Source: a plasmid
Sequence record: NZ_CP044066.1
Strand: one strand, 5' to 3'
Length of the DNA: 64,000 bases
The notes beneath the pieces were generated by a model. The model searched no databases. It had not been told where the DNA came from and saw only the letters and a program-made list of their open reading frames with translations. This document shows positions 36,384 through 55,350 of the stretch, one piece after another; the stretch's first letter is position 1; each line of letters starts with the position of its first letter. The translations under genes were made by a program, and so were the position numbers.

Positions 36384-36420
36384 ACGACTTGACATTGTTG
36401 CCCTGTCGATAGGCTGAGAA
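36384..36420 (+). promoter_or_regulatory. sigma70-type promoter, ACGACTTGACATTG family copy 1
   Basis: ACGACTTGACATTG, a 15-nt spacer and then TAGGCT. About 45 nt before the ATG at 36443. Confidence 0.5.
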
Positions 36421-36442
36421 GGTCCAACACTTCTCCGTCGCC

Positions 36443-37594
36443 ATGCACCTGCCCCCTCCTCCGTTGCTCCCGCCGCGCTCCGCGCCGGCCCCTAACGTCC
36501 AGCATGCCCTCGATCGCATGGACGCGCTGATCGACCCGGCATGCGGTCTGCTGACCAACCCCGCAAACTCCGCAACCGCGCAGGCCAGCCGCCGCGACAT
36601 GGCACTCATTCGTGCTGCATGCACGTCCGCCGCCCTTCCACCGCCCGGGCCCTCTCCAGTCTCCGGACACTGGCGAAGTGGCAATGGCGTGATCTCATGC
36701 GGAACGCTGCGCATCTTCAGCGAGAACTTCGACACGAACCCAGCCGACCACATCAAGGCCGGCATCGTGCAATGGGTCTGCAACACGCTGAATGCCGCGC
36801 AACCGTCGCGCGCGCTCGCCGTGCAGCGGGACTGCGGGCCGGAATCCATCTATTCCCCGCCCCTCCATCTCGTGAACCACCTGGCCGCGCTGATCGCCGC
36901 GGATCTGCTGGGGCAGGCAACGGACGATGACCGGCTGCTGGTATCTATCCGTCTGGTCGAACTGCTCGTGCGCGCGAACACGCACCCGCGCTGTCCGCCG
37001 CCGCCGGACGAGGCCCGAGGCGGCCGAGCGCGAGCACCTAGGCTGCGCGAACTGCGGCACCGGCATTTACCACGCGCTCACAAATCCGCCCGCCACGAGC
37101 TAACGATGCCCAAGGACGATCGCTACTTTGGCAAGACCATCGACGAGCACTACGACGCCGGTAGCTGCTGGTTGTGCGGAAAATCCGTCGAGTACTCCCT
37201 GGGCTATCACACGCCTACGGGTGCGCACTGGGATTGTGTATCCGCGCTTCGAAGTCAGTTGGAGGATCTCGCCACCGACCGCCGGACAGTTCCGTATCTG
37301 GCCCGCGCCAACGGCGGCCACTACATCCACACCGTCGATCCCAGGACTGCCAGGTCGCTATGCGGGCACACCCCCAAGGACACGGCGCGACGCATGCGCT
37401 CGCGCGGCCGATGGATCGAAGTCCGAGACGTGCCGCGCGGCTACCGACGTTGCCCGCACTGCGAGCGCCTGGCCTCGGCCAATGGCGCCGTTGAGTATGA
37501 ATCGGCCGACGCCACCAGTCGGCATGACGTCAAGAACACCGAAACCGACCGCGACACCCGCACGCGAGATTTATTCGAGGAAGAATCGCCATGA
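36443..37594 (+). CDS. hypothetical protein with C-terminal Cys-rich zinc-finger-like region (383 aa)
   Basis: CWLCGKS...HWDC...CGH...CPHC. Confidence 0.5.
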   Translation: MHLPPPPLLPPRSAPAPNVQHALDRMDALIDPACGLLTNPANSATAQASRRDMALIRAACTSAALPPPGPSPVSGHWRSGNGVISCGTLRIFSENFDTNPADHIKAGIVQWVCNTLNAAQPSRALAVQRDCGPESIYSPPLHLVNHLAALIAADLLGQATDDDRLLVSIRLVELLVRANTHPRCPPPPDEARGGRARAPRLRELRHRHLPRAHKSARHELTMPKDDRYFGKTIDEHYDAGSCWLCGKSVEYSLGYHTPTGAHWDCVSALRSQLEDLATDRRTVPYLARANGGHYIHTVDPRTARSLCGHTPKDTARRMRSRGRWIEVRDVPRGYRRCPHCERLASANGAVEYESADATSRHDVKNTETDRDTRTRDLFEEESP

Positions 37595-38697
37595 GTGAAA
37601 ACAGCGCCATCGAGTGGACAGACCACACGTTTAACGCTTGGGAAAAAGGCTGCCAGAAGGTCGGCCCCGGCTGCGATCACTGCTACGCCGAGACGCACAA
37701 CGCGCGATTCGCTGGCGGTCACGCCGTGAACTGGGGACCGGGTGCGCCACGCCGACGCACCTCCCCTTCGAACTGGCGGAAGATGATCCGCTGGAACGCC
37801 GCGCACGCAGCCTTCGCCGCAGTGCACGGACGGCGACAGCGAGTCTTTTGTGCCAGCATGTCGGATGTCTTCGACAACGAAGTGCCGATCGAATGGTTCG
37901 TCGACATGCTCGACGTCTGGCGTGTAACGCCGAATCTCGACAAGCTGGTATTGACGAAGCGAATCGGCAACGCCACGAGGCGGCTGGCGGAAGCCTTCGA
38001 CGCCCTGATGATGCGCAACGACTGGGCGGACAACCCCCTTGTCCCGTGGCTGGCCACGTGGATCGCCGGGAACGCCCCTGCCGATATCTGGTTGGGAGCA
38101 ACGGTCGTGAACCAGGCCGAAGCTGACCGCGACATCCCGAAACTGCTTCGGGTCCCAGCGAAGATCCGCTTCCTCTCCATTGAGCCGCAGCTCGGCCATA
38201 TCGAGGTGTTCTCGACGCTCACGGGCGAGCTCCTCCACACATCCGGCAACAAATACGATCCGGGGGCAATCGACTGGATCATCGCCGGCGGCGAAAGCGG
38301 TCCGGGTGCGCGATTCACGCATCCGGCCTGGCCACGCTCGCTGCGCGACCAGTGCGCCGCGGCCCATGTGCCGTTTCTGTTTAAGCAATGGGGACGCTGG
38401 CACACTGCATTCGTAGATATCGGCACCGGTATATCCGTGTACCGCGAGTTCACCAGCTTCCAGCAATGGGTGAACAAGGCCGACACGTGGGTGGCAGGCG
38501 GCATCTGTATCGACCGGCATGGAAGGCAACTCGAACGCGGCGAGGATTTTATGCGCGCCCGCGATGAAACCGCCTTCCCGGTCACCGTGCTCCATGACGT
38601 TGGCAAGAAGGCCGCAGGGCGGCTCCTTGATGGCGTGCTGCACGACGCGTTTCCCGTGACGGCTTTGGCCTTCCGACGGGCAACCGAACCGAAGTGA
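37591..38697 (+). CDS. phage Gp37/Gp68-family (PF07505-type) protein
   Basis: N-terminus MSENSAIEWTDHTFNAWEKGCQKVGPGCDHCYAE, typical of this family. Confidence 0.6.
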   Translation: MSENSAIEWTDHTFNAWEKGCQKVGPGCDHCYAETHNARFAGGHAVNWGPGAPRRRTSPSNWRKMIRWNAAHAAFAAVHGRRQRVFCASMSDVFDNEVPIEWFVDMLDVWRVTPNLDKLVLTKRIGNATRRLAEAFDALMMRNDWADNPLVPWLATWIAGNAPADIWLGATVVNQAEADRDIPKLLRVPAKIRFLSIEPQLGHIEVFSTLTGELLHTSGNKYDPGAIDWIIAGGESGPGARFTHPAWPRSLRDQCAAAHVPFLFKQWGRWHTAFVDIGTGISVYREFTSFQQWVNKADTWVAGGICIDRHGRQLERGEDFMRARDETAFPVTVLHDVGKKAAGRLLDGVLHDAFPVTALAFRRATEPK

Positions 38698-38699
38698 CA

Positions 38700-38915
38700 A
38701 TGGCCCAGTACGACGACAACGAGCGCGAATACCCCGAGCCCGAGACGATCCTTGCCATCCGTGGAGCAATCAACACAGGACTACATGGTGGCCCCATGGG
38801 CCCGCCCGGACACTGGCTGAACGAATTCTGGCGAATTGGCGCAGCGCTGCGAGACCATACGGCCATGTTGCATGGTCAATTGGACACGGGACCTAGCGCG
38901 GGCGGTGACTGCTGA
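38700..38915 (+). CDS. small hypothetical protein (~71 aa)
   Basis: Short ORF immediately after the upstream stop. Weak support. Confidence 0.3.
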   Translation: MAQYDDNEREYPEPETILAIRGAINTGLHGGPMGPPGHWLNEFWRIGAALRDHTAMLHGQLDTGPSAGGDC

Positions 38916-39275
38916 CGTTTAGGTCTTGCTCGGCGGCCGACGGACCGCTCCCACGGCCGTCGGTAGTTTCGCGTTAGCCGGCGCGGCGCTCGTATTCGTT
39001 TCAGGGAATGCTGCGGCGTTCACACCTTACCGGAGAACACTGTCAGAGCCGTCGGAGGGGTCCCGCGCCGCGTCGGTGCATGGACGGGCGCTGCGGGGTT
39101 TCGATTAGCAAGTGCTTCATACACTCCGTAGCGAGCTGGAGAGGGAGCATTTCTGAGTCAGCCGACAGCATGACTGGATGGAGGTGCTTGGGAAGCCTCG
39201 ACCCTAACCTGCGGCTGGCCTATTGCTGATGCTTTTGACGCAGTCCGTGGCGCCATTGCCTCGGCGCAAATGATC

Positions 39276-39322
39276 GTTTCAGTAACGGTCACGATGGGCT
39301 ATACTTCACCGTTACTGAAACA
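39276..39322. promoter_or_regulatory. perfect 14-bp inverted repeat operator/promoter of the TA module
   Basis: GTTTCAGTAACGGT-N19-ACCGTTACTGAAAC. The spacer contains TATACT. SD AAGGAG lies 7 nt before the ATG at 39337. Confidence 0.6.
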
Positions 39323-39336
39323 AAAAGGAGCGAACG

Positions 39337-39549
39337 ATGGCACGAGACGTTGCGTTACGTGTCCGGGAACACCGAGCCGCCAAGATCGCCAAGGGGCTCA
39401 AGATGCATCAAATCTGGTTGCCAGATACCACTGCGCCGGGCTTCGCTGACATGTGCCGACGGGCCGTGGAGGGCCTGAAGAACGCACCTGAGCAGCAGGA
39501 AGCCCAAGAGGACATTTACGCTCTCTTTGACATGGGCGACGACGAATGA
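39337..39549 (+). CDS. type II antitoxin (PemI/MazE-like partner of the downstream toxin)
   Basis: 70-aa acidic-tailed ORF whose stop overlaps the toxin ATG. Confidence 0.55.
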   Translation: MARDVALRVREHRAAKIAKGLKMHQIWLPDTTAPGFADMCRRAVEGLKNAPEQQEAQEDIYALFDMGDDE

Positions 39550-39872
39550 AGCGTGGCGATATTGTGACGGTGGCAGCTAAGGGCAGATTCACAAGTAAGC
39601 CGCGCCCGGCCGTTATCGTCTCGTCTGACTTCTTCGAAGGGCATAGCTCTGTGGCGGTCGTACTCCTGACCGGCGAAGTGAGGGACATCCCGATGCTCCG
39701 CTGGACAGTTGAACCGAGCGCACAGAATGGACTGAAAAAGGCATCGCAGGTCCAGATTGACAAGATCACCGCAGTCGCAGTCGAAGACGTGGGCGAGCCG
39801 ATCGGGCAACTGAGCACCGAAGACATGACAGAGATTACCCGCTACCTTGCGACGTACCTAGGCGTTAAGTAA
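39546..39872 (+). CDS. PemK/MazF-family endoribonuclease toxin
   Basis: MKRGDIVTV...KPRPAVIVSSDFF, the PemK/MazF hallmark. Confidence 0.7.
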   Translation: MKRGDIVTVAAKGRFTSKPRPAVIVSSDFFEGHSSVAVVLLTGEVRDIPMLRWTVEPSAQNGLKKASQVQIDKITAVAVEDVGEPIGQLSTEDMTEITRYLATYLGVK

Positions 39873-40241
39873 CGCAGCACAATGGCAAGGCCGGGACCTA
39901 GCCTCGGCGCATCCCATGTGGGGCAGCTATGGCTCAGACGCTTTTTGGCATTCGCGGGCCGCGTCTCTTCCTGAAGACGACGAGGAAGAGGCAAGTCTTC
40001 TTCCGGCCTACATGCAATAGCAACGGAACGGCGCGCGTGTGATTGCGTTAGCGAAGCTGACGTTGGGGGGAGCAGGACGCAGGGACGCTGCTCGCATTCG
40101 GGACGTGGCCCGCATCAAGGCCGTGAGTCTTCCCAACTCAGGAGTCGTGTAGGCCGCTGATCGAACAGGACAGCCTCAAACGCCTGATATGGAAGCGTCT
40201 CGGGCAGGCATAATCCCGGCTTTCAGCACCGGATTTGTGCC

Positions 40242-40835
40242 ATGCCCAGCGGCCTCCTCCAATGCGCCCACTGCGACGGCGCCCCACTCTTCATCGCCGG
40301 CCGCCTGCAGGCCCTGATCGTCTGCGAAGAATGTGGGATCTCTACCCCACCCATTGACATGGACGGGCAGAACCGCGACGCCGCGTTCACTCAACTCAGC
40401 GCCATCTGGAACAACCGTGTCGAGCACCGCCCCGCCGACGCGACCGCCATCTCCATGACCGCGCGTCGCGCGTTGACGGCCTCCGACATCCCGTACTTCC
40501 TGAATCTTGTTGCCTTGACGGCGGCCGGCGATTGGGCAACGAATGGCCCGCGGCTGTCGGCCATGGCCGCAGCACTCGCGCAGCCAGGATACGAGTTTAA
40601 GCATGTCGATCCGCCCGAGACCGTCATCTCGCAGGCCGTGCGTTACCAGAAGCTGCTCAAGCGCGCCAAGATCATTTATGTGGACGGTGCCCCGATGGTT
40701 CGCTTCGAGCCGGTGCCCGCGCTTTGCGCCGAGATCGCCGAGGAAGCGCTGGCCGACAGGGATTGGCCGCTGCTGGATCTTCACGAGTACATTGGCAAGG
40801 CCATCGACGGCGTGCCAGACCACTGGCAGCCTTGA
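40242..40835 (+). CDS. hypothetical protein with N-terminal CxxC..CxxC zinc ribbon (Lar-like?)
   Basis: CAHCDGAPL...CEECGIS. Confidence 0.45.
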   Translation: MPSGLLQCAHCDGAPLFIAGRLQALIVCEECGISTPPIDMDGQNRDAAFTQLSAIWNNRVEHRPADATAISMTARRALTASDIPYFLNLVALTAAGDWATNGPRLSAMAAALAQPGYEFKHVDPPETVISQAVRYQKLLKRAKIIYVDGAPMVRFEPVPALCAEIAEEALADRDWPLLDLHEYIGKAIDGVPDHWQP

Positions 40836-40858
40836 CATTGCCACGCCGCGGGTAGGCT
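40829..40858 (+). promoter_or_regulatory. sigma70-type promoter, CTTGACATTG family
   Basis: CTTGACATTG, a 15-nt spacer and then TAGGCT, upstream of the nuclease gene. Confidence 0.45.
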
Positions 40859-40887
40859 AGGTTTAACTCTGGCCATCAATTTCCCCA

Positions 40888-41781
40888 ATGTTCCGCCGAC
40901 CGCTTCTCATCTTCGCCCTCGCCCTGACCGCAGCAAATGCCAGTGGCAAGGAGTCCGCATCCTGTGCGCATGTACTGGAATCTGGCCAGCCTGCCGTTCA
41001 TCGTTCGGCGGCTGAATCGCAACTGCTCTGCTACCGTGCCTTCGCGGTGCTCTACTCAGGCCAGACCCGGACCGCCCTATGGTCGGCCGAGCGGCTGACC
41101 GGGGCAGCGGCCGATGCGGCCCGCTCGTTGCCGCGCGATAGCGACTTCTACGAGGAGGCCCGCGTGCCTCCGGCCGATCGCGCGAAGCTGAAGGATTACG
41201 CCCGATCTGGAATGGACCGCGGCCACCTCGCTCCAAGCGGGGACTTCCCCGACAAGGCTTCGCAGGCCGAGAGCTTCAGCCTCGCCAACGTCGTACCGCA
41301 GGACAGAGATTCGAATCGCCGCACGTGGAGCCACATCGAAACGTCCACGCGGCGACTAGCGCGGCAATATGGCGTGATCCATGTCGTGACCGGCCCAGCG
41401 TTTACGCGGGACAGCCCGACGCTCAACGGTCGCATTCGGATCCCGGCGTTCCTCTGGAAGGCGATCTATGTGCCAGGCCTCGGCGCGGCCGCGTATGTTG
41501 TTCGCAACGACGCGACGCCGGCGTACAGCGTCACCAGCATCGAAGAGCTTGCGCAGTTCAGCGGCATCGATCCGTTTCCTGCGCTCGCCCGAAGCCAGCG
41601 CGCCGCCGCCATCGACCTCCCCCCGCCGGCGCCCCATCCGGGCGAAAGGGCCGCCCGGCGCGTTCCATTCGCGGCGCTTGTCTCCAGTGGCACCACGGAT
41701 GTGGGCAGCAACATATCATTGGATGCGCTAGCTGCGCGCGCTGGCGCACTTGCCGGCCGCGTTACCGCTTACCTGAAGTAG
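40888..41781 (+). CDS. secreted DNA/RNA non-specific (NUC / Serratia-type) endonuclease
   Basis: Signal peptide MFRRPLLIFALALTAANASG. Active-site motif DRGHLAP. Confidence 0.7.
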   Translation: MFRRPLLIFALALTAANASGKESASCAHVLESGQPAVHRSAAESQLLCYRAFAVLYSGQTRTALWSAERLTGAAADAARSLPRDSDFYEEARVPPADRAKLKDYARSGMDRGHLAPSGDFPDKASQAESFSLANVVPQDRDSNRRTWSHIETSTRRLARQYGVIHVVTGPAFTRDSPTLNGRIRIPAFLWKAIYVPGLGAAAYVVRNDATPAYSVTSIEELAQFSGIDPFPALARSQRAAAIDLPPPAPHPGERAARRVPFAALVSSGTTDVGSNISLDALAARAGALAGRVTAYLK

Positions 41782-41823
41782 TGGGTCCGATCGCGAAGAA
41801 AAACGTTCCTTTCGAACAATGCA

Positions 41824-41852
41824 AAAGAGGCGTCCGAAGACGCCTCTTTTGT
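41824..41852. terminator. bidirectional Rho-independent terminator
   Basis: AAAAGAGGCGUCcgaaGACGCCUCUUUU. Confidence 0.6.
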
Positions 41853-41870
41853 GTTCCAAGCGCGGCGCCG

Positions 41871-42797
41871 TTATCGCAGCAGCCAGAATGCCAGTAGCCC
41901 GTAATAGAACGAGAGCGGTATGCCCGCGCCGAGAAGCGATGCCGCAACGAACCGCAGCCGGGAAGGTCGCGGTGCATGGGCCAACGCTCGCGCACGCTCC
42001 CTGACCGTCGGCACCATGCTGCGAACTGGAGCACTCGAGACCGCGTCGATATCGCAGCCCGCGAGCCACTCCATGTCAGAGTTATGGATCTCCCCAACGA
42101 AGAGCGATATTTCCTTCGCGCCCAGACGACGCGCTCGCTCCGTCGCAAACTCGAGCATGAACACGCTTCGCAACGGAATGTTGAGCTCAGGCTCGATCAT
42201 CGCCAGCCATGCCCAATCCGGATCAGGGAACACCGGTCCACGCAAAGACCCAAGGCCCAGGCGCCGCCAGCAATTCTCTACGAGATATTCGTGCGGGCCG
42301 GGGAACCCAGCAAGCCTGCGGCGCTCGCCAGGCGCGATTTGGTGGAATGCGGCAGAGCCGCCAATGTCCTGCAGGCGCCGGGGGCCATCGCGCCCAAATC
42401 GATCGCGCCCGGTTCGTCGCTCACGCCAGCTGCTATACGCAACGCGAAACAATCTGGCGGGCGTCAACGCAGCTTTGAACTGCATGCGAAACGCATCCCG
42501 CAGCGGTATCTCGGTCCAATCGTCCATCTCGACCTGAATTCCGCGGTAGAGCTTGGAAAACTTCGTCTCACCGAATACCAGCTCCCCGGGGGCGCTCTGA
42601 ATCGCTCGCTCGACCAGCGCCTTGTACTGGCGATTCGTGCCACCCGTCAGCCCGTGGAGCACCCCGAAGACATGGCATCGCACATCCGCGTAGTCGAAAG
42701 TCAGGCCGTCGATGCGCTGAGCGATATCCTCTTCGCCGGCGAGAACGTCCGAGACGGAAAGATAGGCTGGCGCGCAGGCAGCGGCGGCATCAGCCAC
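41871..42797 (-). CDS. hypothetical protein (308 aa)
   Basis: ORF with high GC3 and C-terminal hydrophobic helices. Confidence 0.5.
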   Translation of the reverse strand: MADAAAACAPAYLSVSDVLAGEEDIAQRIDGLTFDYADVRCHVFGVLHGLTGGTNRQYKALVERAIQSAPGELVFGETKFSKLYRGIQVEMDDWTEIPLRDAFRMQFKAALTPARLFRVAYSSWRERRTGRDRFGRDGPRRLQDIGGSAAFHQIAPGERRRLAGFPGPHEYLVENCWRRLGLGSLRGPVFPDPDWAWLAMIEPELNIPLRSVFMLEFATERARRLGAKEISLFVGEIHNSDMEWLAGCDIDAVSSAPVRSMVPTVRERARALAHAPRPSRLRFVAASLLGAGIPLSFYYGLLAFWLLR

Positions 42798-43080: not shown

Positions 43081-43170
43081 TTTAATTCTCCGCTAGGTTG
43101 GTGAACGGTCATTCAACCATGCGGGTCCTGCGGGCGACCGCCAAAACCAGTGCCATTTCCTCGACGTTTC

Positions 43171-43733: not shown

Positions 43734-43864
43734 ACAACTTGTCTACATACATTGCAAGCTTTCGTGGATCCGGGCCGCCAAAGCCGAGAGACACGCTATG
43801 TTTATGTCGCGTTACCAAGGAAATAGGTCGAGCATGCTCGAACTTTCCGGCGCAACCATCTATC

Positions 43865-45843: not shown

Positions 45844-45880
45844 ACGACTTGACATTGAATTCTGCTCGGTAGAGTTGGTG
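45844..45880 (+). promoter_or_regulatory. sigma70-type promoter, ACGACTTGACATTG family copy 2 (parM promoter)
   Basis: ACGACTTGACATTG, a 15-nt spacer and then TAGAGT. Confidence 0.5.
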
Positions 45881-45899
45881 ACATAGGGAGGCACTAGGT

Positions 45900-46000
45900 G
45901 GACCTATCGGTGAGCATCTGTCAGTTGCTCGCCGATAGTCACCGAAGCATCTGCCATCAACTGTCAGATACCGGACGAAAGTCACCGGATCTGTCAGATT
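45900..46000 (+). repeat. centromere-like iterons (parC-like) upstream of the ParM-like gene
   Basis: Three direct repeats of AGTCACCG(R)..ATCTGTCAG (45906..45924, 45931..45967, 45980..45997). Confidence 0.5.
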
Positions 46001-46057
46001 GAATCGGGCATTCCCTGTTCGTCATCAACCTCGCAACAAACCTCCCGGAGCGAATCC

Positions 46058-47089
46058 ATGCAGCAACAGTACGGCGAATCGAAGATCGCAAAGACTGCCA
46101 CCCTTGCGGTCGATGTGGGCTATGGCAACACCAAGACCGCCTTTGCGCTCGGTTCCGAGATCAAAACGAGCATGTTCCCTTCGCTCGCCCCGCAGGCGGC
46201 CACCTCGAGCCTCACGCCCGAAAGCGGCACGATCTTCCAGGCGCGCAAGGTGGTCAATGTCACGGTGGACGGCGCCCGGTATGAAGTCGGGCCCGGCGTG
46301 TCGCTGAGCGGGGCGTACAACACCGGACGTGCGCTGGCGGAGGATTACGTCACGACGCCGAACTATGCGGCGCTTCTCGCTGGAGCCCTCTTCTACTCCG
46401 GCGCTGCCGAAATCGATCGACTCGTCCTTGGCCTGCCGGTTCACAACACGCAGAAGTACGCCGGCTTCCTGCGCGACCGGTTCGTCGGTCAGCACGACTT
46501 CGGCTGGGGCGAAGTAATTGTGAAATCTGTGATGCCGCTACCGCAGCCCCTCGGCACGCTCGTGACCTACATGCAGCAAAGCGGCAAGCAATACGACCCC
46601 GAAAACTCGTATCTCGTGATCGACGTGGGGTACTTCACGACGGACTGGATCGTGGCCCGCGGCTACACGATGGACGATACCCGCAGCGGTGGCGTACCAG
46701 GTGGCGCGGCGCGCGTATATCAGCAGATCGCCAGCCTGATCGCGGCCGAGCAGGGTCAGCCGTTTGACGCGATCGAGCGCGTCGATCACGCGCTGCGCAC
46801 GACGGGCAAGCTGCTGTTCTACAAACAGGATCTCGAACTGAGCCGCTACCTCCCCGAGGCAATGGCTGTCACCAATCCGGCGATCAAGGAGCTGCAATCG
46901 CGGGTGGGGCGCACCGATGATATCCGGGCCGTCATCCTGACCGGCGGCGGTGCGGCCCTCTACGCGCCGACGATTCGCGCGGCCTTCCCGCTGAACGACA
47001 TTCACATGATGGACTCGCCGTGCTTCGCCAACGTGCGAGGTTTCTACACCATTGGCGCCGCACGTCAGGCGACCAAGGCGGCCGCTTGA
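46058..47089 (+). CDS. ParM/StbA-family actin-like plasmid segregation ATPase
   Basis: N-terminal phosphate-1 motif LAVDVGYGNTKTAF. Second nucleotide-binding motif LVIDVGYFTTD. Adenosine motif ILTGGGAAL. Confidence 0.7.
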   Translation: MQQQYGESKIAKTATLAVDVGYGNTKTAFALGSEIKTSMFPSLAPQAATSSLTPESGTIFQARKVVNVTVDGARYEVGPGVSLSGAYNTGRALAEDYVTTPNYAALLAGALFYSGAAEIDRLVLGLPVHNTQKYAGFLRDRFVGQHDFGWGEVIVKSVMPLPQPLGTLVTYMQQSGKQYDPENSYLVIDVGYFTTDWIVARGYTMDDTRSGGVPGGAARVYQQIASLIAAEQGQPFDAIERVDHALRTTGKLLFYKQDLELSRYLPEAMAVTNPAIKELQSRVGRTDDIRAVILTGGGAALYAPTIRAAFPLNDIHMMDSPCFANVRGFYTIGAARQATKAAA

Positions 47090-47546: not shown

Positions 47547-47547
47547 G

Positions 47548-47590
47548 GACTTGACATACATATCCCTCTGGCAAGCTTGTACTATCTCTT
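47548..47590 (+). promoter_or_regulatory. putative promoter (GGACTTGACATA ..)
   Basis: TTGACA -35-like element upstream of the small membrane ORF. The -10 is unclear. Confidence 0.3.
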
Positions 47591-47609: not shown

Positions 47610-47729
47610 ATGTTCGATTACCTGTCCACCACCGCTGACGTGAATCGCTTTGTCTTCTACGTCGCAATCGGCTTCTGCGTCCTGCAAGCCGTCATCGAGG
47701 TCTACAAGGTGGTTCGCCGCCGTAACTAA
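47610..47729 (+). CDS. small membrane protein (39 aa)
   Basis: MFDYLSTTADVNRFVFYVAIGFCVLQAVIEVYKVVRRRN with SD GAGGAG. Confidence 0.3.
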   Translation: MFDYLSTTADVNRFVFYVAIGFCVLQAVIEVYKVVRRRN

Positions 47730-48113: not shown

Positions 48114-48118
48114 ACGAA

Positions 48119-49189
48119 TCAGGCTGGGACGACTTGCTGCGACATCTGGCGCAACTGATGAACGGTGCGCCATTCATCGCAGAAATCGGTGCCACGCACC
48201 TTGGGTCGGTGCATCACGACCTTGAAGCCGGCTTGCCGCAAGCGCTTCTGCAATACCAGTGCATCGGCCATGCCGGGCGACTTGTGGGTCTCCGGATCAA
48301 TGGCATCGAAATCGGCAAAGATATGGACCGTTTCGATGCCAAGGCCTTGCGGCACCACGAACTGGCTGAGCAGCACCCGGTTCAGGCAGTACCAGGTGGG
48401 GACGCCGAATTGCATGTATGCGGCATACGCCGTTTCCATGCCTTCGGCAATTCCGAGCTCACCATTGCGTGGCGCCATCAGCCGCACTGCGCCGCCCGCC
48501 GGCGGCAATGCCGAAACATCGTTGCGCTTGGCAGGTAGCACCTCTCCGTCCGGCGTGATGACGATGGCTTTCTCCGGCTTGCGGGGATCCAATGACGTTC
48601 GATGCACGGTCGCCATACGGCCGTCAGGCAGCGTGAACTGCGCAACGATCGTAGGGTATCGGCCGACCACCCGCTTCTCGTACCAGTAGTCCTGCACTGC
48701 GAGCCTCAAGGCCTGCGGCCGTGGTGCTCGCAAGCCCGGAATGCGGGCCGCAAGATATCGCATGGCATGGTCGCCAGCGGACAAGCATGATGCGGTCGCC
48801 CACTGCTTCTCGATCCTGCGCAGCTTGGTCGCCGAGTCGGCCCGCGTTCGAGCGGGGCTGGCCCCGGATGTCGCAGGCACGCGGGCTTCGATCGGAGCAC
48901 CGTTGAGGATCCGCTTCAACTCCGAATACGACATTTCGGTGTAGCGGCGGACAAGCTCAAGCCCGTCGCCTCCGGCCGGACTGCCGTCATTGCACTTGCG
49001 ACACACCCAGTCACCGCGACCACGGTTGCGGGTATAGGTGAAGCGGTCTTTACCGCCGCACATCGGACAGGGGCATGGACGCCCGCGCCAGAAGGCATCC
49101 GTCAGGACGCCGGCTGGCAGGTACTGAGCAATGAGGGCGTCCCACTGCTCAGACTTCCAGCTCTTAACAATGTCACTGATAGCTTTCAT
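48119..49189 (-). CDS. zinc-finger + toprim-domain DNA primase-like protein
   Basis: Zn motif CPMCGGKDRFTYTRNRGRGDWVCRKCN followed by a toprim-like region. Start MKAISDIVKSW. Confidence 0.55.
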   Translation of the reverse strand: MKAISDIVKSWKSEQWDALIAQYLPAGVLTDAFWRGRPCPCPMCGGKDRFTYTRNRGRGDWVCRKCNDGSPAGGDGLELVRRYTEMSYSELKRILNGAPIEARVPATSGASPARTRADSATKLRRIEKQWATASCLSAGDHAMRYLAARIPGLRAPRPQALRLAVQDYWYEKRVVGRYPTIVAQFTLPDGRMATVHRTSLDPRKPEKAIVITPDGEVLPAKRNDVSALPPAGGAVRLMAPRNGELGIAEGMETAYAAYMQFGVPTWYCLNRVLLSQFVVPQGLGIETVHIFADFDAIDPETHKSPGMADALVLQKRLRQAGFKVVMHRPKVRGTDFCDEWRTVHQLRQMSQQVVPA

Positions 49190-49213
49190 GGGATGACTCC
49201 TTTTGGGAGTGGT

Positions 49214-49239
49214 GGGTCGATGCCTGAGACAGGCGAAGG
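49214..49239 (-). repeat. M1 motif copy 10 (variant GGGTCGATGCCTGagaCAGGCGAAGG)
   Basis: Directly abuts the SD hairpin of the primase gene. Palindrome arms co-varied to GCCTG/CAGGC. Confidence 0.5.
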
Positions 49240-49409
49240 AACGCTTGCTCAAAAGACATCCCGGCGGCGAGCCAGAAGGTCTTTTCAGCATGGCGTTTGC
49301 GGTTGAGCGAAAGGGAGATGCGCTGCGGGACGGCAGCCAGGAGGAAGGAAAGAACTGCTACCGGAAAACCGGCAGCAGGAGGAACGTGTAACGGTTGGCG
49401 AACCCCGGA

Positions 49410-49970
49410 TCAGCGTCGGAACGGAATGCCGTCCAACGCCAGGGGCGCCGCAAAGGGAATGTCGTCGTCCATATCTCCGAAGCCGCCATCGCGCGGTGCA
49501 CCGCCGCCGCCATAGCTTCCAGCTGACTGCTGTTCGCTGTTGGAGGGCTGGCGCTGCTGGCCGCGGCCCGCGCCTCGCTGGGAGCCTCCGCCGTACGCCC
49601 CCGCATCGGCGCCGTCGTCATCGCCCGGCCGGCCACCCCGGCCCCCCAGCATCTGCATCTGGTCGGCCACGATCTCGGTGCTGTACCTGTCCTGCCCCGA
49701 CTGATCCTGCCACTTACGTGTGCGGATGCGGCCTTCGATATAGACGGAAGAGCCCTTCTTCAAGTACTGGCCGACGATCTCCGCGAGCTTGCCGAAGAAC
49801 GCAATGCGATGCCACTCGGTGGCTTCCTTAAACTCGCCGCTTTGCTTGTCCTTGTAGCGGTCGGTCGTCGCGAGCCGGATGTTGGCCACGGCGTCGCCGC
49901 TGGGCATGTAGCGGACTTCAGGGTCTGCCCCGAGGTTACCGACGAGGATGACTTTGTTGACGGATGCCAT
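49410..49970 (-). CDS. ssb: single-stranded DNA-binding protein
   Basis: OB-fold N-terminus [21 protein letters not shown]. Gly-rich linker and acidic tail DDDIPF. Confidence 0.85.
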
Positions 49971-49979
49971 GTAGTTCCT

Positions 49980-50768
49980 TCAGTGGATGCGATTGATTGA
50001 CCAGACCCAGCGGTCCCAAAGCTTCTGCTGGTTGGTCGCACGATCAATAATGGGACGCCCGGTCTTCTGATCGAAGGCCGGCACTTTTTCCTTATGAAGC
50101 CGGCGAATGCCAACGCGCTCGCCTAGCTCGCAATGGGCGCTGGCCAGGACGTCCTTGAGGCCTTCGCCCTGCAGCACCTTCTCGCCAGCACTGGTTTCGA
50201 GCTTCACGGCGAACGAGGTGTAGGTCGGCTTGCCGCCCGGCTTGGGCTTGCGATTGGGAAACTCCATCTCGCCCCACTCCACCAGCTTTCCGACTGTGTA
50301 GTTGGACGAGGAAGCTTCAGCAGCGCGCGGTTTGACATGAGGCTGCGCGACGGCGTACTCATCGCGCGCCGCTCCACTGGGTTGCGTCTCCGGCTGGGCG
50401 CTCTTTCGAGCGGGCTGGATCGATTGCATCCTCGCGTCACGCACTACGTCTTCAGCGACCTTCTGCGGCGTGACGCCAGGCTGATCGTAGGTGCGAACCT
50501 TGCTCCAGCGCGGCACGACGTCGGGCAGTAGCTTGTTACCGAATGCGGTGTGGCGAATGCGACGATCGAACTCGGCCACGAAGTGCACCACGCGATCTCC
50601 TTCATCTCGAAACAGATGAGGGATGCCATCGATCTGCATGTGGAACTCGTTATCGGCGCCAGTGCCGACCGCGATCATGTCCGCCGGCGAGGGGTGGTCG
50701 CTCTGGAGCTCAGCACGGTCGCTGACCAGCGCGGCAGCGACCTGCTTGATTAGATTGAGCAGTGACAT
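49980..50768 (-). CDS. hypothetical protein (262 aa)
   Basis: High GC3. The N-terminus MSLLNLIKQ is echoed as a gene fragment at 45628..45660. Confidence 0.5.
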   Translation of the reverse strand: MSLLNLIKQVAAALVSDRAELQSDHPSPADMIAVGTGADNEFHMQIDGIPHLFRDEGDRVVHFVAEFDRRIRHTAFGNKLLPDVVPRWSKVRTYDQPGVTPQKVAEDVVRDARMQSIQPARKSAQPETQPSGAARDEYAVAQPHVKPRAAEASSSNYTVGKLVEWGEMEFPNRKPKPGGKPTYTSFAVKLETSAGEKVLQGEGLKDVLASAHCELGERVGIRRLHKEKVPAFDQKTGRPIIDRATNQQKLWDRWVWSINRIH

Positions 50769-50775
50769 GGGGATT

Positions 50776-51198
50776 TCATAATAGAGAGCCGTAGCACTGG
50801 CGCTTGACCTCCTCGAGGACAGCCGTCAGGCGAGCGTGACCAAAGACAACGTCTTGCAGGACGTCAGGGCTCACGCCGCTGATGTCGCAGACGTACTTGT
50901 AGGGAATGGCGCCATCCCAGAACCCGAAAATCCAGCCGATCGTCATGAAGAGCTCTTTGCGATCGACGGCTTCGTTACGGATGCACTCCCGGAACAGCTT
51001 TGCGCAGTCCAGCAGCGATTCGGGCATGTTGACGCCATGGCGGCTGCCACAGGCGAGGTCGATGAGCGCATCGGTCAGGCGCTCGCGCAGCGACTCGTCG
51101 ACTGGCTCTCGCCGGCTGCGATCCGTCGGGGGAGGAGCAACGATGGCGGTCGCTTCTCCGAAGAAGTCCAGTTGCCATCCTGCGTTGGTTGTTTCCAT
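50776..51198 (-). CDS. hypothetical protein (140 aa)
   Basis: ORF with high GC3. Confidence 0.45.
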   Translation of the reverse strand: METTNAGWQLDFFGEATAIVAPPPTDRSRREPVDESLRERLTDALIDLACGSRHGVNMPESLLDCAKLFRECIRNEAVDRKELFMTIGWIFGFWDGAIPYKYVCDISGVSPDVLQDVVFGHARLTAVLEEVKRQCYGSLL

Positions 51199-51297
51199 GA
51201 TGGTCTCCGGACGGGCGTCCGAAGACCCACCTGCCGGCGGGTATCGGATACCCGCGACAGGTGGAAGAAGGCCGCCCGGGAACCGGGCGGCGGTGGA

Positions 51298-51621
51298 TCA
51301 GGGACGGTTGTCCGTCCCGGTTCGACGAATCGGTGTCACAACTGCCGAGCGTTCGTACTTGCGCTCGGGCTGCTCCTCCGGTTGAGGCGCGTCGGCTTTC
51401 GGCTTGGACGGATAGTCCGGCATCGATACCTTCGGTGCTGCAGGGATGCTGCGGCTGCTGTTGACGGCCTTGTTGTACAGATACGAGATCCCAACGACCG
51501 TCACGAATACACCGACGGGAAACGACTGGGATGCGAGATACAGCACCATGCAGAGCACGAGCAGTTGCAGGGGGCGCTTGACGAGATGAGCAAGGGATTC
51601 CACGGTTTCTCTCCGAAACAT
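51298..51621 (-). CDS. hypothetical membrane protein (107 aa)
   Basis: Two TM helices. Start ambiguous between ATG and GTG. Confidence 0.4.
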   Translation of the reverse strand: MFRRETVESLAHLVKRPLQLLVLCMVLYLASQSFPVGVFVTVVGISYLYNKAVNSSRSIPAAPKVSMPDYPSKPKADAPQPEEQPERKYERSAVVTPIRRTGTDNRP

Positions 51622-51791
51622 TGCAAGGGATGGTCCTGACGGATGTCAGGCGCTGGTTCGATGCTCAATGAGCAAGGAAGCCCGTGGACTGCGCGCGTGA
51701 ACGCACTTGCGTCATGCCGCGGCATGGCGCAAAGGCGCTGGTGCTGGGGAAAGAAGGGAATGGGCGAGCGGCACGTAGCCAACTTCGCGCT

Positions 51792-51815
51792 GATCGATGC
51801 GTGTGGACGCGGTGT
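51792..51815 (-). repeat. M1 motif copy 11 (GATCGATGCGTgtgGACGCGGTGT)
   Basis: Upstream of the 51621 gene. The 21-bp palindromic repeat lies about 75 nt further on. Confidence 0.5.
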
Positions 51816-52157
51816 TCCGTAAATCCTAGCCGAAGATTCGAGGCTCAAGAACCCGGAAAGCTCACCAAAACCATACGTCTTTCTGCCGAAATAGGTCGAG
51901 CATGCTCGGTAGATTTCATAATACGAAACAAATGTATCTTCAGAACGGATACAAACGATTTAGATATTACTTAGATCTGATCTTCTTTTTATGCAGCTCT
52001 ATCCCGTAAGTTGGGGGTAACTCACTAAAGCTGTCCTTTCTCACCCCGATAAGACGCATACATGTAACCGTCTTAAGGCCGCCTTCCGAAAAAGGGGCCC
52101 GAAAAAACGTAGCTTTCTGCCGGCTGCTGTGGCCGGGCGTTTCGTAATCTCTGCGGA

Positions 52158-52190
52158 GGCTTGACAACGCAAATCAAACGCTACGCTGGT
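52158..52190 (+). promoter_or_regulatory. sigma70-type promoter (GGCTTGACAACG, 15-nt spacer, TACGCT)
   Basis: Same -35 / 15-nt spacer / TAnnnT architecture as the ACGACTTGACATTG family. Confidence 0.4.
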
Positions 52191-52217
52191 TGTCATGTTC
52201 ATCAACGAGAGTGAAAC

Positions 52218-53441
52218 ATGCCAGAAAAGAAGAAGAAACTTGATGGTCTATCGGTGCCGCCTGCGGAGTCGGCCAAGAAAGCCGATATCGTAGATTTTCC
52301 TGTCTCACGCCTGCAGGCCTCCATGGACGCTCGGTTGCGCGAGATCATGGGCCCCAGCCTCAGCGAGGATCAGCTTGGCCGCCTTGGCGACGCCATCCAT
52401 AACATTCGGCGGGTGCGCGAGAAGATCGAGCGCGCGCTGCTCGAGATGGGCTCCGAGTTGCAGAACATTCATGACCTGTCGATGGAATCGGTCATCGGGG
52501 AGTTCGGCGACACGCGCGGGGCGCGGATGCGTGGCTGGACCAAGTTCAATCAACTCGCGAAGGAACTGCTCGAGCTTCAGCCCAACCAGGCGAAGCTGTA
52601 TCTTGGCCTGTATGTCCGCTTCCAGAACCACAATGGCGCACTGAGCAAGCTCAATACCGGCGAACTGATGATCCTGCAGCCCGCCGAGTACACCGATGAG
52701 GAAGTCGACGCTGTCATCGAGTTCAAGGACACCGACCCAACGTACCGCCGCGGGAAGATCCGTGACTTCATCAAGCAACTGCGACGAAAGCACGAGCAGG
52801 TCATCGATGTGTCCACCCGTCTGGACATTGCAACCTCTGAACTTGCCAACACGGTTCAGGACAATGCTGACAAAGACCTCGAAATCCGTCGGCTCAACGA
52901 AGAAGTATCGCGGCTTGCTGCGGAGCGCGATGCCGATCGCGATGCCCTGAGTCACGTGCGCGAAGAACTCACCCGGCATAACCATTCGCAGAGCATGCAG
53001 CAGATGCGTATCCAGGATCTGGAGCGCGAGACCCGGGAGTTGCAGGAGCGCGTAGCGAGCGCGCGCGCGAATGCGCGCACCGAGACGGTGGAGGTACCGA
53101 TTGTCCCCCCCGGCTACGCTACGATCGAAGAGGCGCTGGCCGCGAAGAATTCGGAGTTGGAAGCAGCACGGAGCCAGCTTGCCGATATCGAAAACCGGCG
53201 CCTCGGGATCGAACAAGAGATCAAGGACCGCGCTAGCGTTCTGGATCGTCGCGCGAAGGCCGACGGCGCACTCGCGACGCTTGTCGATCAGTTTGAGAAG
53301 ACGGTCTCGGCGTTCGCGGCCACGCAACTGGCCGTGCAGATGGACGGCAGCGTCGATCAGTTCCAATCGACGCTCACGGTGCTTGACAGCATCGTGGGTC
53401 GCCTCCACGCAGATATTCGCGCTGCCCTCCAAACTCGCTGA
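52218..53441 (+). CDS. coiled-coil hypothetical protein (407 aa)
   Basis: Long heptad-rich, E/R/Q/L-rich sequence. Confidence 0.5.
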   Translation: MPEKKKKLDGLSVPPAESAKKADIVDFPVSRLQASMDARLREIMGPSLSEDQLGRLGDAIHNIRRVREKIERALLEMGSELQNIHDLSMESVIGEFGDTRGARMRGWTKFNQLAKELLELQPNQAKLYLGLYVRFQNHNGALSKLNTGELMILQPAEYTDEEVDAVIEFKDTDPTYRRGKIRDFIKQLRRKHEQVIDVSTRLDIATSELANTVQDNADKDLEIRRLNEEVSRLAAERDADRDALSHVREELTRHNHSQSMQQMRIQDLERETRELQERVASARANARTETVEVPIVPPGYATIEEALAAKNSELEAARSQLADIENRRLGIEQEIKDRASVLDRRAKADGALATLVDQFEKTVSAFAATQLAVQMDGSVDQFQSTLTVLDSIVGRLHADIRAALQTR

Positions 53442-53452
53442 TCAGACCTGCC

Positions 53453-54628
53453 ATGCAACAACAATCTTTGACGGCGGATTTTGAGCGCCTGCAATTGACC
53501 CGAATGACGTGCGATCGCATTCGTTCGGCCAACTACCATCTCACCGCTCACCTCGCCGAAGCGCTGAGCGCGCACCCCCAGCTGGATGCCGTTCTGCACA
53601 TTGATCGCGCGCATATCGACAAGCTGCGGAAGGCCGAGGCAACGCAACGGGACCTGATGGGTACGCCCTTCCTCGTTGTGGTACCGACACTCATGGACGT
53701 GCACGACTGGAAGTGTCTGACGGAGGGTACGACTACCACCGTCGCCGTGGACAAGCTCCGCCACCAACTGCCCAAATGGAGCAACGACGACAAGCTTCGC
53801 CTCTTCTTCAACAACCGCCATTACATCTGGCTGATGGTCGAGCTGCTGCATGTGAGTATCCTCGCTGCGCCGCTCCTCGGCATCAGCAAAGAGCTCGCCG
53901 AGTACCTTCGATCGCTGCCGCAGCACGTTCTCGACATGGTTATCGCGAAGGTCGATTTCCCGATCTTCCGCTGGTGCCTCGACAACAGGCGCTTCTGGAT
54001 CGACTTCGAAACATCGCGCCTGTCCTCGGATGCGATCGGCCACCATTTCTTGGCCACCGTGCCCATCCGCGCCGATCGGATCGAGGCGAACCAGAGTTGG
54101 ACGAACCTCCGCCTCGACCCGTTGAAGAAGAAGGTCTACGGTGAATTGATGATCCGGCAATACTGTCGCGCCTCCACGGTCACGTCGCTGCTCGGTATCA
54201 ATTCGACCAAGACTCGCCAGCTCTTCCAGTCAATTCATGGAGCCTCTTCGCCGACGGGTCAGCTGCCGACCTCGACAGCATGGTACTTCGAACAACCGTT
54301 GCATCGCATGCAGGCAACGATGATGGTGACGCTGTACCGGATCGGTCTCGCCTTTGGGGGCAGTGTCCCTGAAGCATTCATTGCCGCCTACGACTTGTTC
54401 GACAAGTTCTTCGGCCCCGATTCGCGGATCTCCGCAGACCGGGCGTGCCACATCTGCCGATCGATGTCCACGGACACACAGCTGGACCTTGCCCCCTGCC
54501 GAAGTTGCCGCACCCCTTACCTTATCGCCAACACAGCGCCCAAGATCGAGCTCAGCAACAGCTTCTCGTGCCCGGGCTGCAGCGGGGCGCTGGGGAACGG
54601 ACAACTCGGCCGCCGTCGCAAGCAATAA
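53453..54628 (+). CDS. hypothetical protein with C-terminal Cys-rich zinc ribbon (391 aa)
   Basis: CHICRS...CRSC...CPGC. Confidence 0.5.
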   Translation: MQQQSLTADFERLQLTRMTCDRIRSANYHLTAHLAEALSAHPQLDAVLHIDRAHIDKLRKAEATQRDLMGTPFLVVVPTLMDVHDWKCLTEGTTTTVAVDKLRHQLPKWSNDDKLRLFFNNRHYIWLMVELLHVSILAAPLLGISKELAEYLRSLPQHVLDMVIAKVDFPIFRWCLDNRRFWIDFETSRLSSDAIGHHFLATVPIRADRIEANQSWTNLRLDPLKKKVYGELMIRQYCRASTVTSLLGINSTKTRQLFQSIHGASSPTGQLPTSTAWYFEQPLHRMQATMMVTLYRIGLAFGGSVPEAFIAAYDLFDKFFGPDSRISADRACHICRSMSTDTQLDLAPCRSCRTPYLIANTAPKIELSNSFSCPGCSGALGNGQLGRRRKQ

Positions 54629-54640
54629 GAGAGGGAAGCC

Positions 54641-54994
54641 ATGGAATTCGTACTCAAGAAAATGCTCGAGATCGCGTTCTTGCACGTGCTCCCCTGCTAT
54701 TTCGCCTTCAAGTGGGCGAAAAGAGTCGGGAAGAATCCGTGGATGTGGGCGGTGCTCTGTTTCCTATTTTCGTACTTCGCACTGTTCTTGTTCGGCTTTC
54801 TACAGAACCGCAAGCGGCTACCCACCTACGAGGAATACCGCAGGGCGCATCCGAGCCACACCACGGCGAACGGCGTCTCCTGCAGCGAATGCGGATCGCG
54901 CAGCATCCGCATGTGGCGTCACCAGGTGTTCCTTCATGTGTACCAGTACCACCGGTGCAATCATTGCGGAACCACCCTTTATAGATCGCGTTAG
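54641..54994 (+). CDS. small membrane protein with C-terminal zinc ribbon (117 aa)
   Basis: TM helices followed by CSECGS...CNHCG. Confidence 0.4.
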   Translation: MEFVLKKMLEIAFLHVLPCYFAFKWAKRVGKNPWMWAVLCFLFSYFALFLFGFLQNRKRLPTYEEYRRAHPSHTTANGVSCSECGSRSIRMWRHQVFLHVYQYHRCNHCGTTLYRSR

Positions 54995-55105
54995 ATAGCC
55001 TTACCCCCCGCAACGGGGGTAAAGGATAGACGTCAGACCGCCGTTGTAATAGCGGTCGCGGTTCTTGTATCCTTGCGATCCTGTCGAATTTGTTACTTCC
55101 CAACG

Positions 55106-55303
55106 ATGCGCCTGCTCCTCGCTATCCTGCTCCCGTGGTTCCAGTTCTTCACGATCGGGCGACCGTTCGCCGGGATCATCTGCTTCATCCTTCAAAGCAC
55201 CATTATCGGCTGGATTCCGGCGGCGATCTGGTCCACCTACGCGCTGAGCCAGTACAAGACTGATAAGAAGATTGAGGCCGCTCTCAACAATCGCGGCCGC
55301 TAG
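55106..55303 (+). CDS. YqaE/Pmp3-family (UPF0057) small hydrophobic protein
   Basis: MRLLLAILLPWFQFFTIGRPFAGIICFILQSTIIGWIPAAIWS. Confidence 0.55.
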   Translation: MRLLLAILLPWFQFFTIGRPFAGIICFILQSTIIGWIPAAIWSTYALSQYKTDKKIEAALNNRGR

Positions 55304-55312
55304 GCATTTGGC

Positions 55313-55350
55313 ACGACTTGACATTGCCGCTCCGTCTGTAGGATGAAATC
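55313..55350 (+). promoter_or_regulatory. sigma70-type promoter, ACGACTTGACATTG family copy 3
   Basis: ACGACTTGACATTG, a 15-nt spacer and then TAGGAT, upstream of the lipoprotein gene. Confidence 0.5.

Follow-up and report, generated by a model that had tools for sequence, protein, structure and literature searches.

An invariant 15-bp spacer in putative promoters of the rightward operons of a pHG1/pMOL28-type megaplasmid backbone

The stretch of DNA studied here, 64,000 nucleotides of a plasmid (record NZ_CP044066.1; hereafter the window), is, judging from Pfam and NCBIfam matches and from synteny, the backbone of a pHG1/pMOL28-type Burkholderiaceae megaplasmid. We focus on a short repeated motif, CTTGACA followed after exactly 15 nt by TAnnnT, which lies ahead of its rightward operons. 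The syntenic module contains the PRTRC cassette, PRTRC-D, primase and ssb genes, a pair of genes for a coiled-coil and an FlhC-like protein, and type IVb pilus genes; it is shared with pMOL28, pHG1 and pENH92 and with plasmids of Burkholderia, Ralstonia, Caballeronia, Paraburkholderia and Robbsia. The leftward genes are those of the PRTRC cassette (ThiF, JAB, E2, alpha-helical, PRTRC-E, ParB), a DUF932 gene, SbcD-like and Gp3-like genes, and a primase/ssb operon assigned by synteny with pMOL28 and pHG1. The rightward genes comprise a UvrD-like/DUF1173 operon, a 383-aa open reading frame (ORF) with a DUF5131 (Gp37/Gp68) gene, a gene for an Endonuclease_NS nuclease, PRTRC-D (an actin-like relative of ParM), a gene for a coiled-coil protein followed by one for a protein with a C-terminal FlhC domain, and a gene for a 271-aa protein. 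In relatives, the DUF5131 operon additionally has a DNA methyltransferase gene and a Lar-family restriction-alleviation gene. A preliminary description of this DNA had named the products of several rightward genes, and these identities were broadly right for DUF5131/Gp37, Endonuclease_NS, the ParM-like PRTRC-D and the coiled-coil protein followed by the FlhC-domain protein.

The same description reported an exact 14-mer, ACGACTTGACATTG, at positions 36384, 45844 and 55313. It is indeed present there in three copies, all on the + strand, with 0 expected in shuffled sequence. The five close copies listed at the time all carry the 15-nt spacer and one of the -10 hexamers TAGGCT, TAGAGT, TAGGAT and TACGCT, and the exact pattern CTTGACA-N15-TAnnnT has five matches (36388, 40831, 45848, 52160 and 55317), again all on the + strand. 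The coordinates of the copies were right apart from small offsets; CTTGACATTG, for instance, begins at 40831 and not at 40829. With at most one mismatch allowed, the pattern has seven matches against 1.1 expected, all on the + strand, the additional ones being at 47550 and 32847. The site at 47550 had been taken for a looser copy (at 47548): its -35 element is perfect, but the position after N15 carries CAAGCT, with a C at -12. A variant of this CAAGCT type also lies ahead of the endonuclease gene of pMOL28. The member at 32847 had been overlooked, so that the initial set of six copies was incomplete. When both strands of the entire window were scanned under relaxed criteria for spacers of 13–20, the same seven + strand sites came out, each with a spacer of 15; the few further matches on the + strand are alternative registers that overlap the sites at 40831 (N20) and 47550 (N16).

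One 15-bp-spacer site is thus found ahead of each rightward operon between 32.8 and 56.2 kb (n = 7). All seven are intergenic and co-oriented with the next operon. They are listed here with the genes that follow them; the transcription start site (TSS) is predicted 7 nt after the -10 hexamer.

32847–32874, + strand: weak member, CTCGACA-N15-TATCGT (CTCGACATTG-N12-TATCGT); predicted TSS ~32881; orthologue of the pMOL28 site at 94414; followed by a hypothetical gene (ATG at 32903), a UvrD-like helicase gene (33358–34818), a DUF1173 gene and an FtsK-gamma-like gene (36022–36375).

36384–36415, + strand: putative promoter with the exact 14-mer; -35 TTGACA (36389–36394), 15-nt spacer, -10 TAGGCT (36410–36415); predicted TSS ~36422; orthologues at pMOL28 97945 and on pHG1 (L008:102); followed by the 383-aa ORF (36443) and the DUF5131/Gp37 gene (37591–38697), probably onward to 40835.

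40831–40858, + strand: putative promoter starting with CTTGACATTG; -35 TTGACA (40832–40837), 15-nt spacer, -10 TAGGCT (40853–40858); predicted TSS ~40865; followed by the Endonuclease_NS gene (40888–41781); the orthologous pMOL28 site, at 123278, reads CTTGACT-N15-CAAGCT.

45844–45875, + strand: putative promoter with the exact 14-mer; -35 (45849–45854), 15-nt spacer, -10 TAGAGT (45870–45875); predicted TSS ~45882; followed, behind a 176-nt leader, by the PRTRC-D/ParM-like gene (46058–47089) and then a 164-aa ORF.

47550–47577, + strand: variant member, CTTGACA-N15-CAAGCT; predicted TSS ~47584; followed by a 39-aa membrane-peptide ORF (47610–47729).

52158–52187, + strand: putative promoter; -35 (52161–52166), 15-nt spacer, -10 TACGCT (52182–52187); predicted TSS ~52194; followed by the coiled-coil protein gene (52218–53441), the gene of the FlhC-domain regulator (53453–54628) and two small ORFs; orthologues at loci L001, L003, L005, L006, L008 and L010 of the comparison set described below, with CAGACT-type variants in Burkholderia-type plasmids.

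55313–55344, + strand: putative promoter with the exact 14-mer; -35 (55318–55323), 15-nt spacer, -10 TAGGAT (55339–55344); predicted TSS ~55351; followed by the 271-aa ORF (55402–56217), the place of which is taken by a CAP-domain gene in relatives.

The -35 hexamer is exactly TTGACA at six of the seven sites and TCGACA at 32847. The -10 hexamers (TAGGCT twice, TAGAGT, TACGCT, TAGGAT and TATCGT) conform to TAnnnT, and CAAGCT at 47550 retains A-11 and T-7. The predicted 5' untranslated regions are 21–26 nt long at five sites, 51 nt before the 271-aa gene and 176 nt before parM. Counted from motif start to start codon, the distance of 40–60 nt to the gene claimed initially therefore holds for four of the six copies then listed, but not for parM (~214 nt) or the 271-aa gene (89 nt). 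All seven sites have a 15-bp spacer, and none the 17 ± 1 bp typical of sigma-70/RpoD promoters. Moreover, a standard sigma-70 scan with spacers of 16–18 nt gave only two matches between 36.2 and 56.1 kb, against 4.9 expected, neither of them at an operon start or at the intergenic sites.

We then compared the syntenic region from 13 related loci, and scanned 434 kb from 14 related sequences in six genera for the pattern. The Cupriavidus sources were pMOL28, pHG1, pENH92, the H19C3 plasmid, strain YR651 and two contigs of one metagenome-assembled genome; the others were Burkholderia gladioli, B. ambifaria, Ralstonia solanacearum, Paraburkholderia atlantica, Caballeronia and Robbsia. This diversity was gathered from PLSDB, in which 69 plasmids carry the FlhC-like gene, a search of genome contigs with the FlhC-like protein alone having given four close loci. 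The FlhC-like proteins of the related loci are 35–89% identical to that of the window. With TTGAC[AT]-Nx-TAnnnT and x from 10 to 25, the N15 spacing gave 39 matches, every one on the strand that encodes the FlhC-like protein; N17 and N18 gave none, the opposite strand had none at N15, and any other spacing gave at most two per strand. In other words, 39 out of 167 TTGAC[AT] hexamers on the + strand are followed by TAnnnT at N15, when about 0.5 would be expected.

These sites occupy orthologous places. An N15 site lies upstream of PRTRC-D in all 12 loci spanning that region, upstream of the 271-aa/CAP-domain gene in 14 of 14 sequences, and also ahead of the coiled-coil/FlhC-like operon in relatives. 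In Burkholderia-type plasmids this last operon opens with an extra NERD gene and the -10 element is CAGACT, CAAACT or CATGCT, still at N15. When the 12 regions upstream of parM are aligned, the invariant core columns are CTTGAC, the next T and TAGA.T, with no insertion or deletion between the hexamers and free sequence in the spacer; the few further invariant columns fall in an adjoining inverted repeat. Conserved hexamers separated by a spacer of fixed length and free sequence form a classic promoter footprint. The logo of the 39 sites reads aCTTGACwT-N11-CGrTAvrnTgGaa. The C at -36, not demanded by the search, is present in 39/39 sites and the G at -14 in 31/39; at -13, 34/39 sites have G or A and 3/39 have C, and T never stands third in the -10 (0/39). 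Outside this family, PRTRC-D has homologues with 29–33% identity on IncC plasmids, pCAR1 and a Shewanella MOBH plasmid, and no 15-bp-spacer promoter was found upstream of the parM/stbA homologue in any of these three. Because these upstream regions lack it, the architecture is a trait of the Burkholderiaceae plasmid family and not of all MOBH relatives.

For pMOL28, transcription starts have been mapped: Grosse et al. 2022 (PMC9045368) determined 5,763 TSSs in C. metallidurans CH34. After checking that the replicon-5 coordinates of that listing are those of NC_007972.2, we compared it with the TSSs predicted for eight pMOL28 15-bp-spacer sites. TSS_9289+5 (score 514, rank 704; -35 TGGCTTGACA, -10 GATACAATGG) coincides exactly with the predicted 9289, behind TTGACA-N15-TACAAT, and TSS_19245+5 (score 18) differs by 1 nt from the predicted 19244, behind TTGACT-N15-TAGACT. 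Both promoters were scored as strong RpoD-type by the authors (PMC9045368). Two promoters of the 15-bp architecture therefore do fire from, or within 1 nt of, the predicted base.

These starts also bear on the view that the repeats are not promoters at all, being instead sites for a DNA-binding protein (e.g. direct repeats TTGACT/TAGACT 21 bp apart) or remnants of duplicated sequence. The three window copies do share 14 identical bases, and in Burkholderia-type plasmids TTGACT and TAGACT share xxGACT two helical turns apart. However, identity among the three ACGACTTGACATTG copies drops to 65–79% over 34 nt with unrelated flanks, and the exact 14-mer is lost at the orthologous FlhC-operon and 271-aa-gene sites of locus L005, the FlhC-like protein of which is 88% identical. 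Furthermore, the second element shows the kind of variation seen in a -10 hexamer, with T/C, A and the last T fixed and a free middle, and two pMOL28 copies have a TSS at, or 1 nt from, the predicted distance. We find a non-promoter origin hardly credible. As candidate operators within the sites, a spacer dyad (TCG-N9-CGA) and the direct repeat TTGACT/TAGACT were both set aside as too weak and inconsistent.

The promoter interpretation first proposed from the window itself is thus supported by position and orientation, by the phylogenetic footprint, by the two mapped pMOL28 starts and by the lack of a canonically spaced alternative. We consider it probable (about 0.7) that the 15-bp-spacer sites are genuine sigma-70 (RpoD)-type promoters of the rightward operons, which form an establishment, maintenance and regulator module; for the sigma factor, RpoD is what we infer. 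Compared with the canonical TTGACA-N17-TATAAT promoter of C. metallidurans CH34 (PMC9045368, PMC13492112), the sites have in common an extended -35, T-12, A-11, T-7 and G-14, a TSS 7 nt after the -10 in the two mapped analogues and a location upstream of co-oriented genes. The published host consensus is xTTGACA / GxTATAAT (PMC13492112 Table 4), and the 15-bp family keeps both its -35 and its G-14. They differ from it in that the plasmid spacer is always 15 bp, against 16–22 bp in the host, in the third -10 base, and in being conserved as a class across six genera.

To quantify the host spacing, we recomputed hexamer spacers for the 48 housekeeping RpoD promoters of PMC9045368 Table 2 and obtained 16 bp in 7 cases, 17 in 16, 18 in 13 and 19–22 in 12, with a mean of ~17.8 bp. 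The same paper states "15.8 +/- 1.4 bp between -35 and -10", a distance counted to the start of a 10-nt model that opens 2 nt before the hexamer. Taken at face value, this figure could falsely make 15-bp spacers appear normal in the host. A spacer of 15 bp is at the lower edge of RpoD tolerance (PMC9303308). As a control, our spacer scan of pMOL28 recovered the MerR-controlled mer promoter, TTGACT-N19-TAAGGT at 31666.

Several observations weigh against plain RpoD promoters. None of the 48 host housekeeping promoters has a 15-bp spacer, and T at the third -10 base, present in 24/48 of them, is missing from all 39 plasmid sites; a form of polymerase other than the plain RpoD holoenzyme is therefore possible. 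In addition, six of the eight pMOL28 sites (94447, 97978, 123311, 130962, 137391 and 141627) have no TSS listed in the unstressed culture, and these six are the orthologues of the window sites at 32847, 36388, 40831, 45848, 52160 and 55317. The two sites with a TSS lie in accessory regions without a homologue in the window, and the mapped starts come from a relative, pMOL28, and not from the window's own element. A divergent leftward promoter ~100 bp from the pMOL28 parM site was active (TSS_130858-5, score 398). Since this start was detected so close by, low sensitivity is not the cause of the missing backbone TSSs. On pMOL28 the copy with the best -10, TACAAT, is strong, the one TAGACT copy is barely active, and no start was detected without stress at the TAGRnT backbone copies. 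A literature search found no TSS map for pHG1.

The same observations could be explained by a dedicated factor, either an alternative sigma factor or a plasmid protein that remodels the RpoD holoenzyme in the manner of sigma appropriation. Such a factor would recognise a TTGAC-like -35 and a TAGRnT -10 at a distance 2 bp below that preferred by RpoD, and the sites would constitute a true regulon, active only in its presence. Besides the avoidance of third-position T, this would account for the absolute spacing (39/39), for the silence of the pMOL28 backbone copies under standard growth despite a perfect -35, and for the lack of this architecture ahead of the parM/stbA homologue of the gammaproteobacterial MOBH relatives. 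However, no sigma-70-family protein was detected among the ~40 window ORFs scanned, the sole Sigma70_r4-like match being a LuxR-type response regulator of a cargo island. The sites match none of the RpoH, RpoS, FliA and ECF (extracytoplasmic function) consensus sequences of C. metallidurans (PMC13492112), and the two promoters of this architecture that fire in ordinary culture are those scored as strong RpoD-type. A dedicated factor thus seems unlikely to us.

The individual sigma classes were also considered as candidates. RpoS tolerates odd spacers, and sigma-32 promoters combine a 15–16 bp hexamer spacing with a CCCCAT -10 element. At the 15-bp sites CCCCAT is absent; the C-13 signature of RpoS occurs in only 3/39, and the -35 is fully conserved, not degenerate. 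RpoH, FliA and ECF promoters (CTTGAAA/CxTATTTT, TAAAGTT/CCGATAAT and GAAC.../CGT..., respectively) did not fit, and only the RpoD row matches both elements (PMC13492112 Table 4).

If the sites are RpoD-type promoters, the holoenzyme would contact the extended -35 (aCTTGACwT), G-14 and a GC-rich -10 (TA[G/C/A][G/A]nT, sometimes CAnnCT), and transcription would begin 7 nt after the -10. A spacer kept 2 bp below the host optimum, together with a GC-rich -10 without T at its third position, would make these promoters intrinsically weak or conditional. The remaining contacts (extended -35, G-14 and a G-rich discriminator) would be held near-optimal in compensation. The outcome would be a low-level or condition-dependent supply of the UvrD-like/DUF1173 and DUF5131 operons, the nuclease, the ParM-like PRTRC-D and the coiled-coil/FlhC-like regulator operon, the leftward operons being served by a separate, canonically spaced class. 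Candidate reasons for the fixed 15 bp are a setting of strength that keeps expression low, torsional sensing, or a dedicated factor; not all of these are mutually exclusive.

Torsional sensing would mean that a 15-bp spacer aligns the hexamers best on relaxed DNA, the set being favoured when the plasmid is under-supercoiled. The establishment genes and the FlhC-like regulator would then be expressed in a burst, for example in a new transconjugant whose complementary strand has just been made, or in stationary phase. A comparison is offered by engineered 15-nt-spacer variants of E. coli pheP, which have the same geometry: they show that RpoD holoenzyme can use 15-nt spacers, and modelling, in vitro and in vivo data agree that relaxation relatively favours these while high negative supercoiling favours 19-nt spacers (PMC9303308). 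The genes behind these sites have roles typical of plasmid establishment and maintenance, and the silence of the pMOL28 backbone copies in steady-state culture would fit. However, the pheP variants are laboratory constructs, whereas the plasmid geometry is natural, multi-copy and conserved. The effect of spacer length is also modest, the 15-nt pheP mutant being "almost insensitive" to relaxation and not strongly induced (PMC9303308). Moreover, a GC-rich -10 and a G-rich discriminator should make opening require negative supercoiling, i.e. an effect in the opposite direction. Torsional sensing is therefore a doubtful explanation, in our opinion.

In a broader form, the invariant spacer may be a regulatory code, i.e. 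a spacer-length regulon read efficiently only on relaxed plasmid DNA, as in the first minutes after conjugative entry, or with a plasmid- or host-encoded factor that re-spaces the -35 and -10 contacts of RNA polymerase. We offer this as speculation, with the balance clearly against it. If true, it would mirror the 19-bp promoters of MerR type and would set the timing of both the establishment genes and the operon of the FlhC-like master regulator. MerR-type promoters (spacers of 19–20 bp; an example is the Tn501-like mer of pMOL28) likewise combine good hexamers with a conserved non-optimal spacer. The plasmid spacers are 2 bp too short, whereas those of MerR promoters are 2–3 bp too long. We found no convincing dyad operator in the spacers of the plasmid family (a weak TCG...CGA only) and identified no cognate spacer-binding regulator. 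With a spacer of 15 and not 19–20 bp, and a dyad of only 3 bp, a MerR-type spacer-distortion promoter was rejected.

Searches of the literature on PRTRC regulation and on 15-bp-spacer promoters of conjugative plasmids found no description of this class. What is new is a sigma-70 variant in which a non-optimal spacer is invariant and kept across six genera, and which stands ahead of a putative master-regulator operon. The megaplasmids concerned (pHG1, pMOL28, pRALTA-like symbiotic and Burkholderia megaplasmids) bear hydrogen oxidation, metal resistance, symbiosis and virulence traits, and the control of their transfer and maintenance genes is essentially unstudied. The conserved class provides a concrete and cheap experimental handle, and a natural test case for spacer length encoding sensitivity to topology or to a factor. 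Promoter predictors limited to spacers of 16–18 bp miss all of these promoters.

The leftward operons have their own conserved unit, composed of an inverted repeat GAAAGC-N16-GCTTTC, TTGnnn-N17/18-TATnCT and CGCGTC-N3-GACGCATCGA; an example is CTTGAAA-N17-TATTCT at 20747. The last element, called M1 in the preliminary description, sits at +7 to +25 of the transcript; its hairpin may serve as an RNA leader or as a DNA operator. Copies of this class are located as follows.

Window, leftward-reading: 1632, 5280, 12526, 13230, 20705, 45771, ~9147 and ~51813.

pMOL28: 75112, 78877, 82670, 83378, 90663, 130852 and 136997.

TSS_130858-5 of pMOL28 lies 7 nt after the TATGCT of a leftward-class copy. 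At the parM locus the two classes stand back to back, the leftward inverted repeat abutting the ACGAC extension of the 14-mer and the -35 of the 45844 promoter. The earlier idea of two regulatory vocabularies stands in so far as the leftward operons use a different class, with one mapped TSS. Strand, taken then as the divider, does not hold: since the + strand type IV secretion system (T4SS) operon of pMOL28 has no 15-bp-spacer promoter, the split follows module or function. Each of the two gene sets is presumably co-regulated.

The leftward unit is also relevant to the possibility that the 15-bp sites are class II activator-dependent promoters of an FlhC-like master regulator, comparable to those with AcaCD/SetCD boxes on IncC plasmids and SXT, the motif being the binding site of the activator. 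The element does encode an FlhC-domain protein, the operon of which bears the motif, and it is distantly related to the MOBH IncC plasmids (ParM/StbA homologue 29% identical, acaC/FlhC nearby). With the AcaCD/SetCD regulons of IncC plasmids and SXT/R391 integrative and conjugative elements it shares a MOBH relaxase, a ParM/StbA homologue, an FlhC-family regulator and a repeated promoter vocabulary over transfer and maintenance operons. However, AcaCD-, SetCD- and FlhDC-dependent promoters have no recognisable -35, an activator box overlapping that place (PMC4542580), whereas the window sites have a perfect sigma-70 -35 and no extra box. Such a dependence is for that reason unlikely. Besides, nothing is conserved outside the sigma-contact positions, and the inverted repeat GAAAGC-N16-GCTTTC of the leftward promoters is more plausible as the site of an activator. 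The predicted targets of the coiled-coil/FlhC-like pair are accordingly the leftward inverted-repeat/M1 promoters and not the 15-bp class. We regard activation through the motif as very improbable.

The IncP-1 plasmid RK2 provides another example of a repeated vocabulary in many backbone operon promoters, implying coordinated control. There, KorA/KorB operators are repeated in many backbone promoters, as repressor operators added to normally spaced promoters. In the window, by contrast, the repeated unit is the core promoter itself.

On the IncC plasmid pECO-dc1b (L018, 3989–6919), the ParM/StbA gene, the product of which is 29% identical to PRTRC-D (window 46058–47089), lies between mobI and an H-NS-family gene plus a gene for an FlhC-family regulator. 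From this gene order, the window module may be suggested to be a distant Burkholderiaceae counterpart of the oriT-proximal regulatory region of IncC/SXT. A 210-aa ORF at 5419–6051 has a sub-threshold match to AcaB (E = 0.009).

The 176-nt parM leader (45882–46057) contains three CTGTCAG repeats (45918, 45961 and 45991) and an inverted repeat, CCTATCGGTGAGC...GCTCGCCGATAG. These repeats may be a parC-like centromere or an autoregulatory site. In relatives too, the gap between promoter and PRTRC-D is long, roughly 170–250 nt.

In the leftward set, a full-length match to the sbcD RNA (Rfam RF01757) was found at 4853–5007 on the - strand, scoring 148.8 bits where the gathering score is 40. In the direction of transcription it follows the M1-type promoter at 5280 and precedes the Gp3-like and SbcD-like (Metallophos_2) genes. 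The leaders of the leftward operons thus include at least one structured-RNA motif that has been described before.

The backbone is broken by a cargo island (21620–29760) with two GntR/aminotransferase-type regulators, a LuxR-type response regulator, an alpha/beta hydrolase, a CMD-family protein and an IS3-family transposase (24540–25421). This island contains no 15-bp-spacer site, and no M1 copy by a strict pattern, the only M1 search made there.

A near-perfect palindrome of ~30 nt (GAAATAGGTCGAGCATGCTCGACCTATTTC-like), operator-like in appearance, occurs in three copies, at 7095–7124, 43820–43849 and 51888–51917. The copy at 51888 lies in a divergent intergenic region, and the promoter of the FlhC-like operon comes ~270 nt downstream of it. 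A GCTCGA half-site common to the promoters and this palindrome was considered and discarded as inconsistent across sites.

Finally, insertion sequences (IS1086 or IS66-family) were found exactly between the 15-bp promoter and the coiled-coil/FlhC-like operon, one in each of two plasmids: pMOL28 (L001, 29710–30902) and pENH92 (L007, 11127–13873). These independent events uncouple the putative master regulator from its promoter and may reflect selection for silencing transfer functions.

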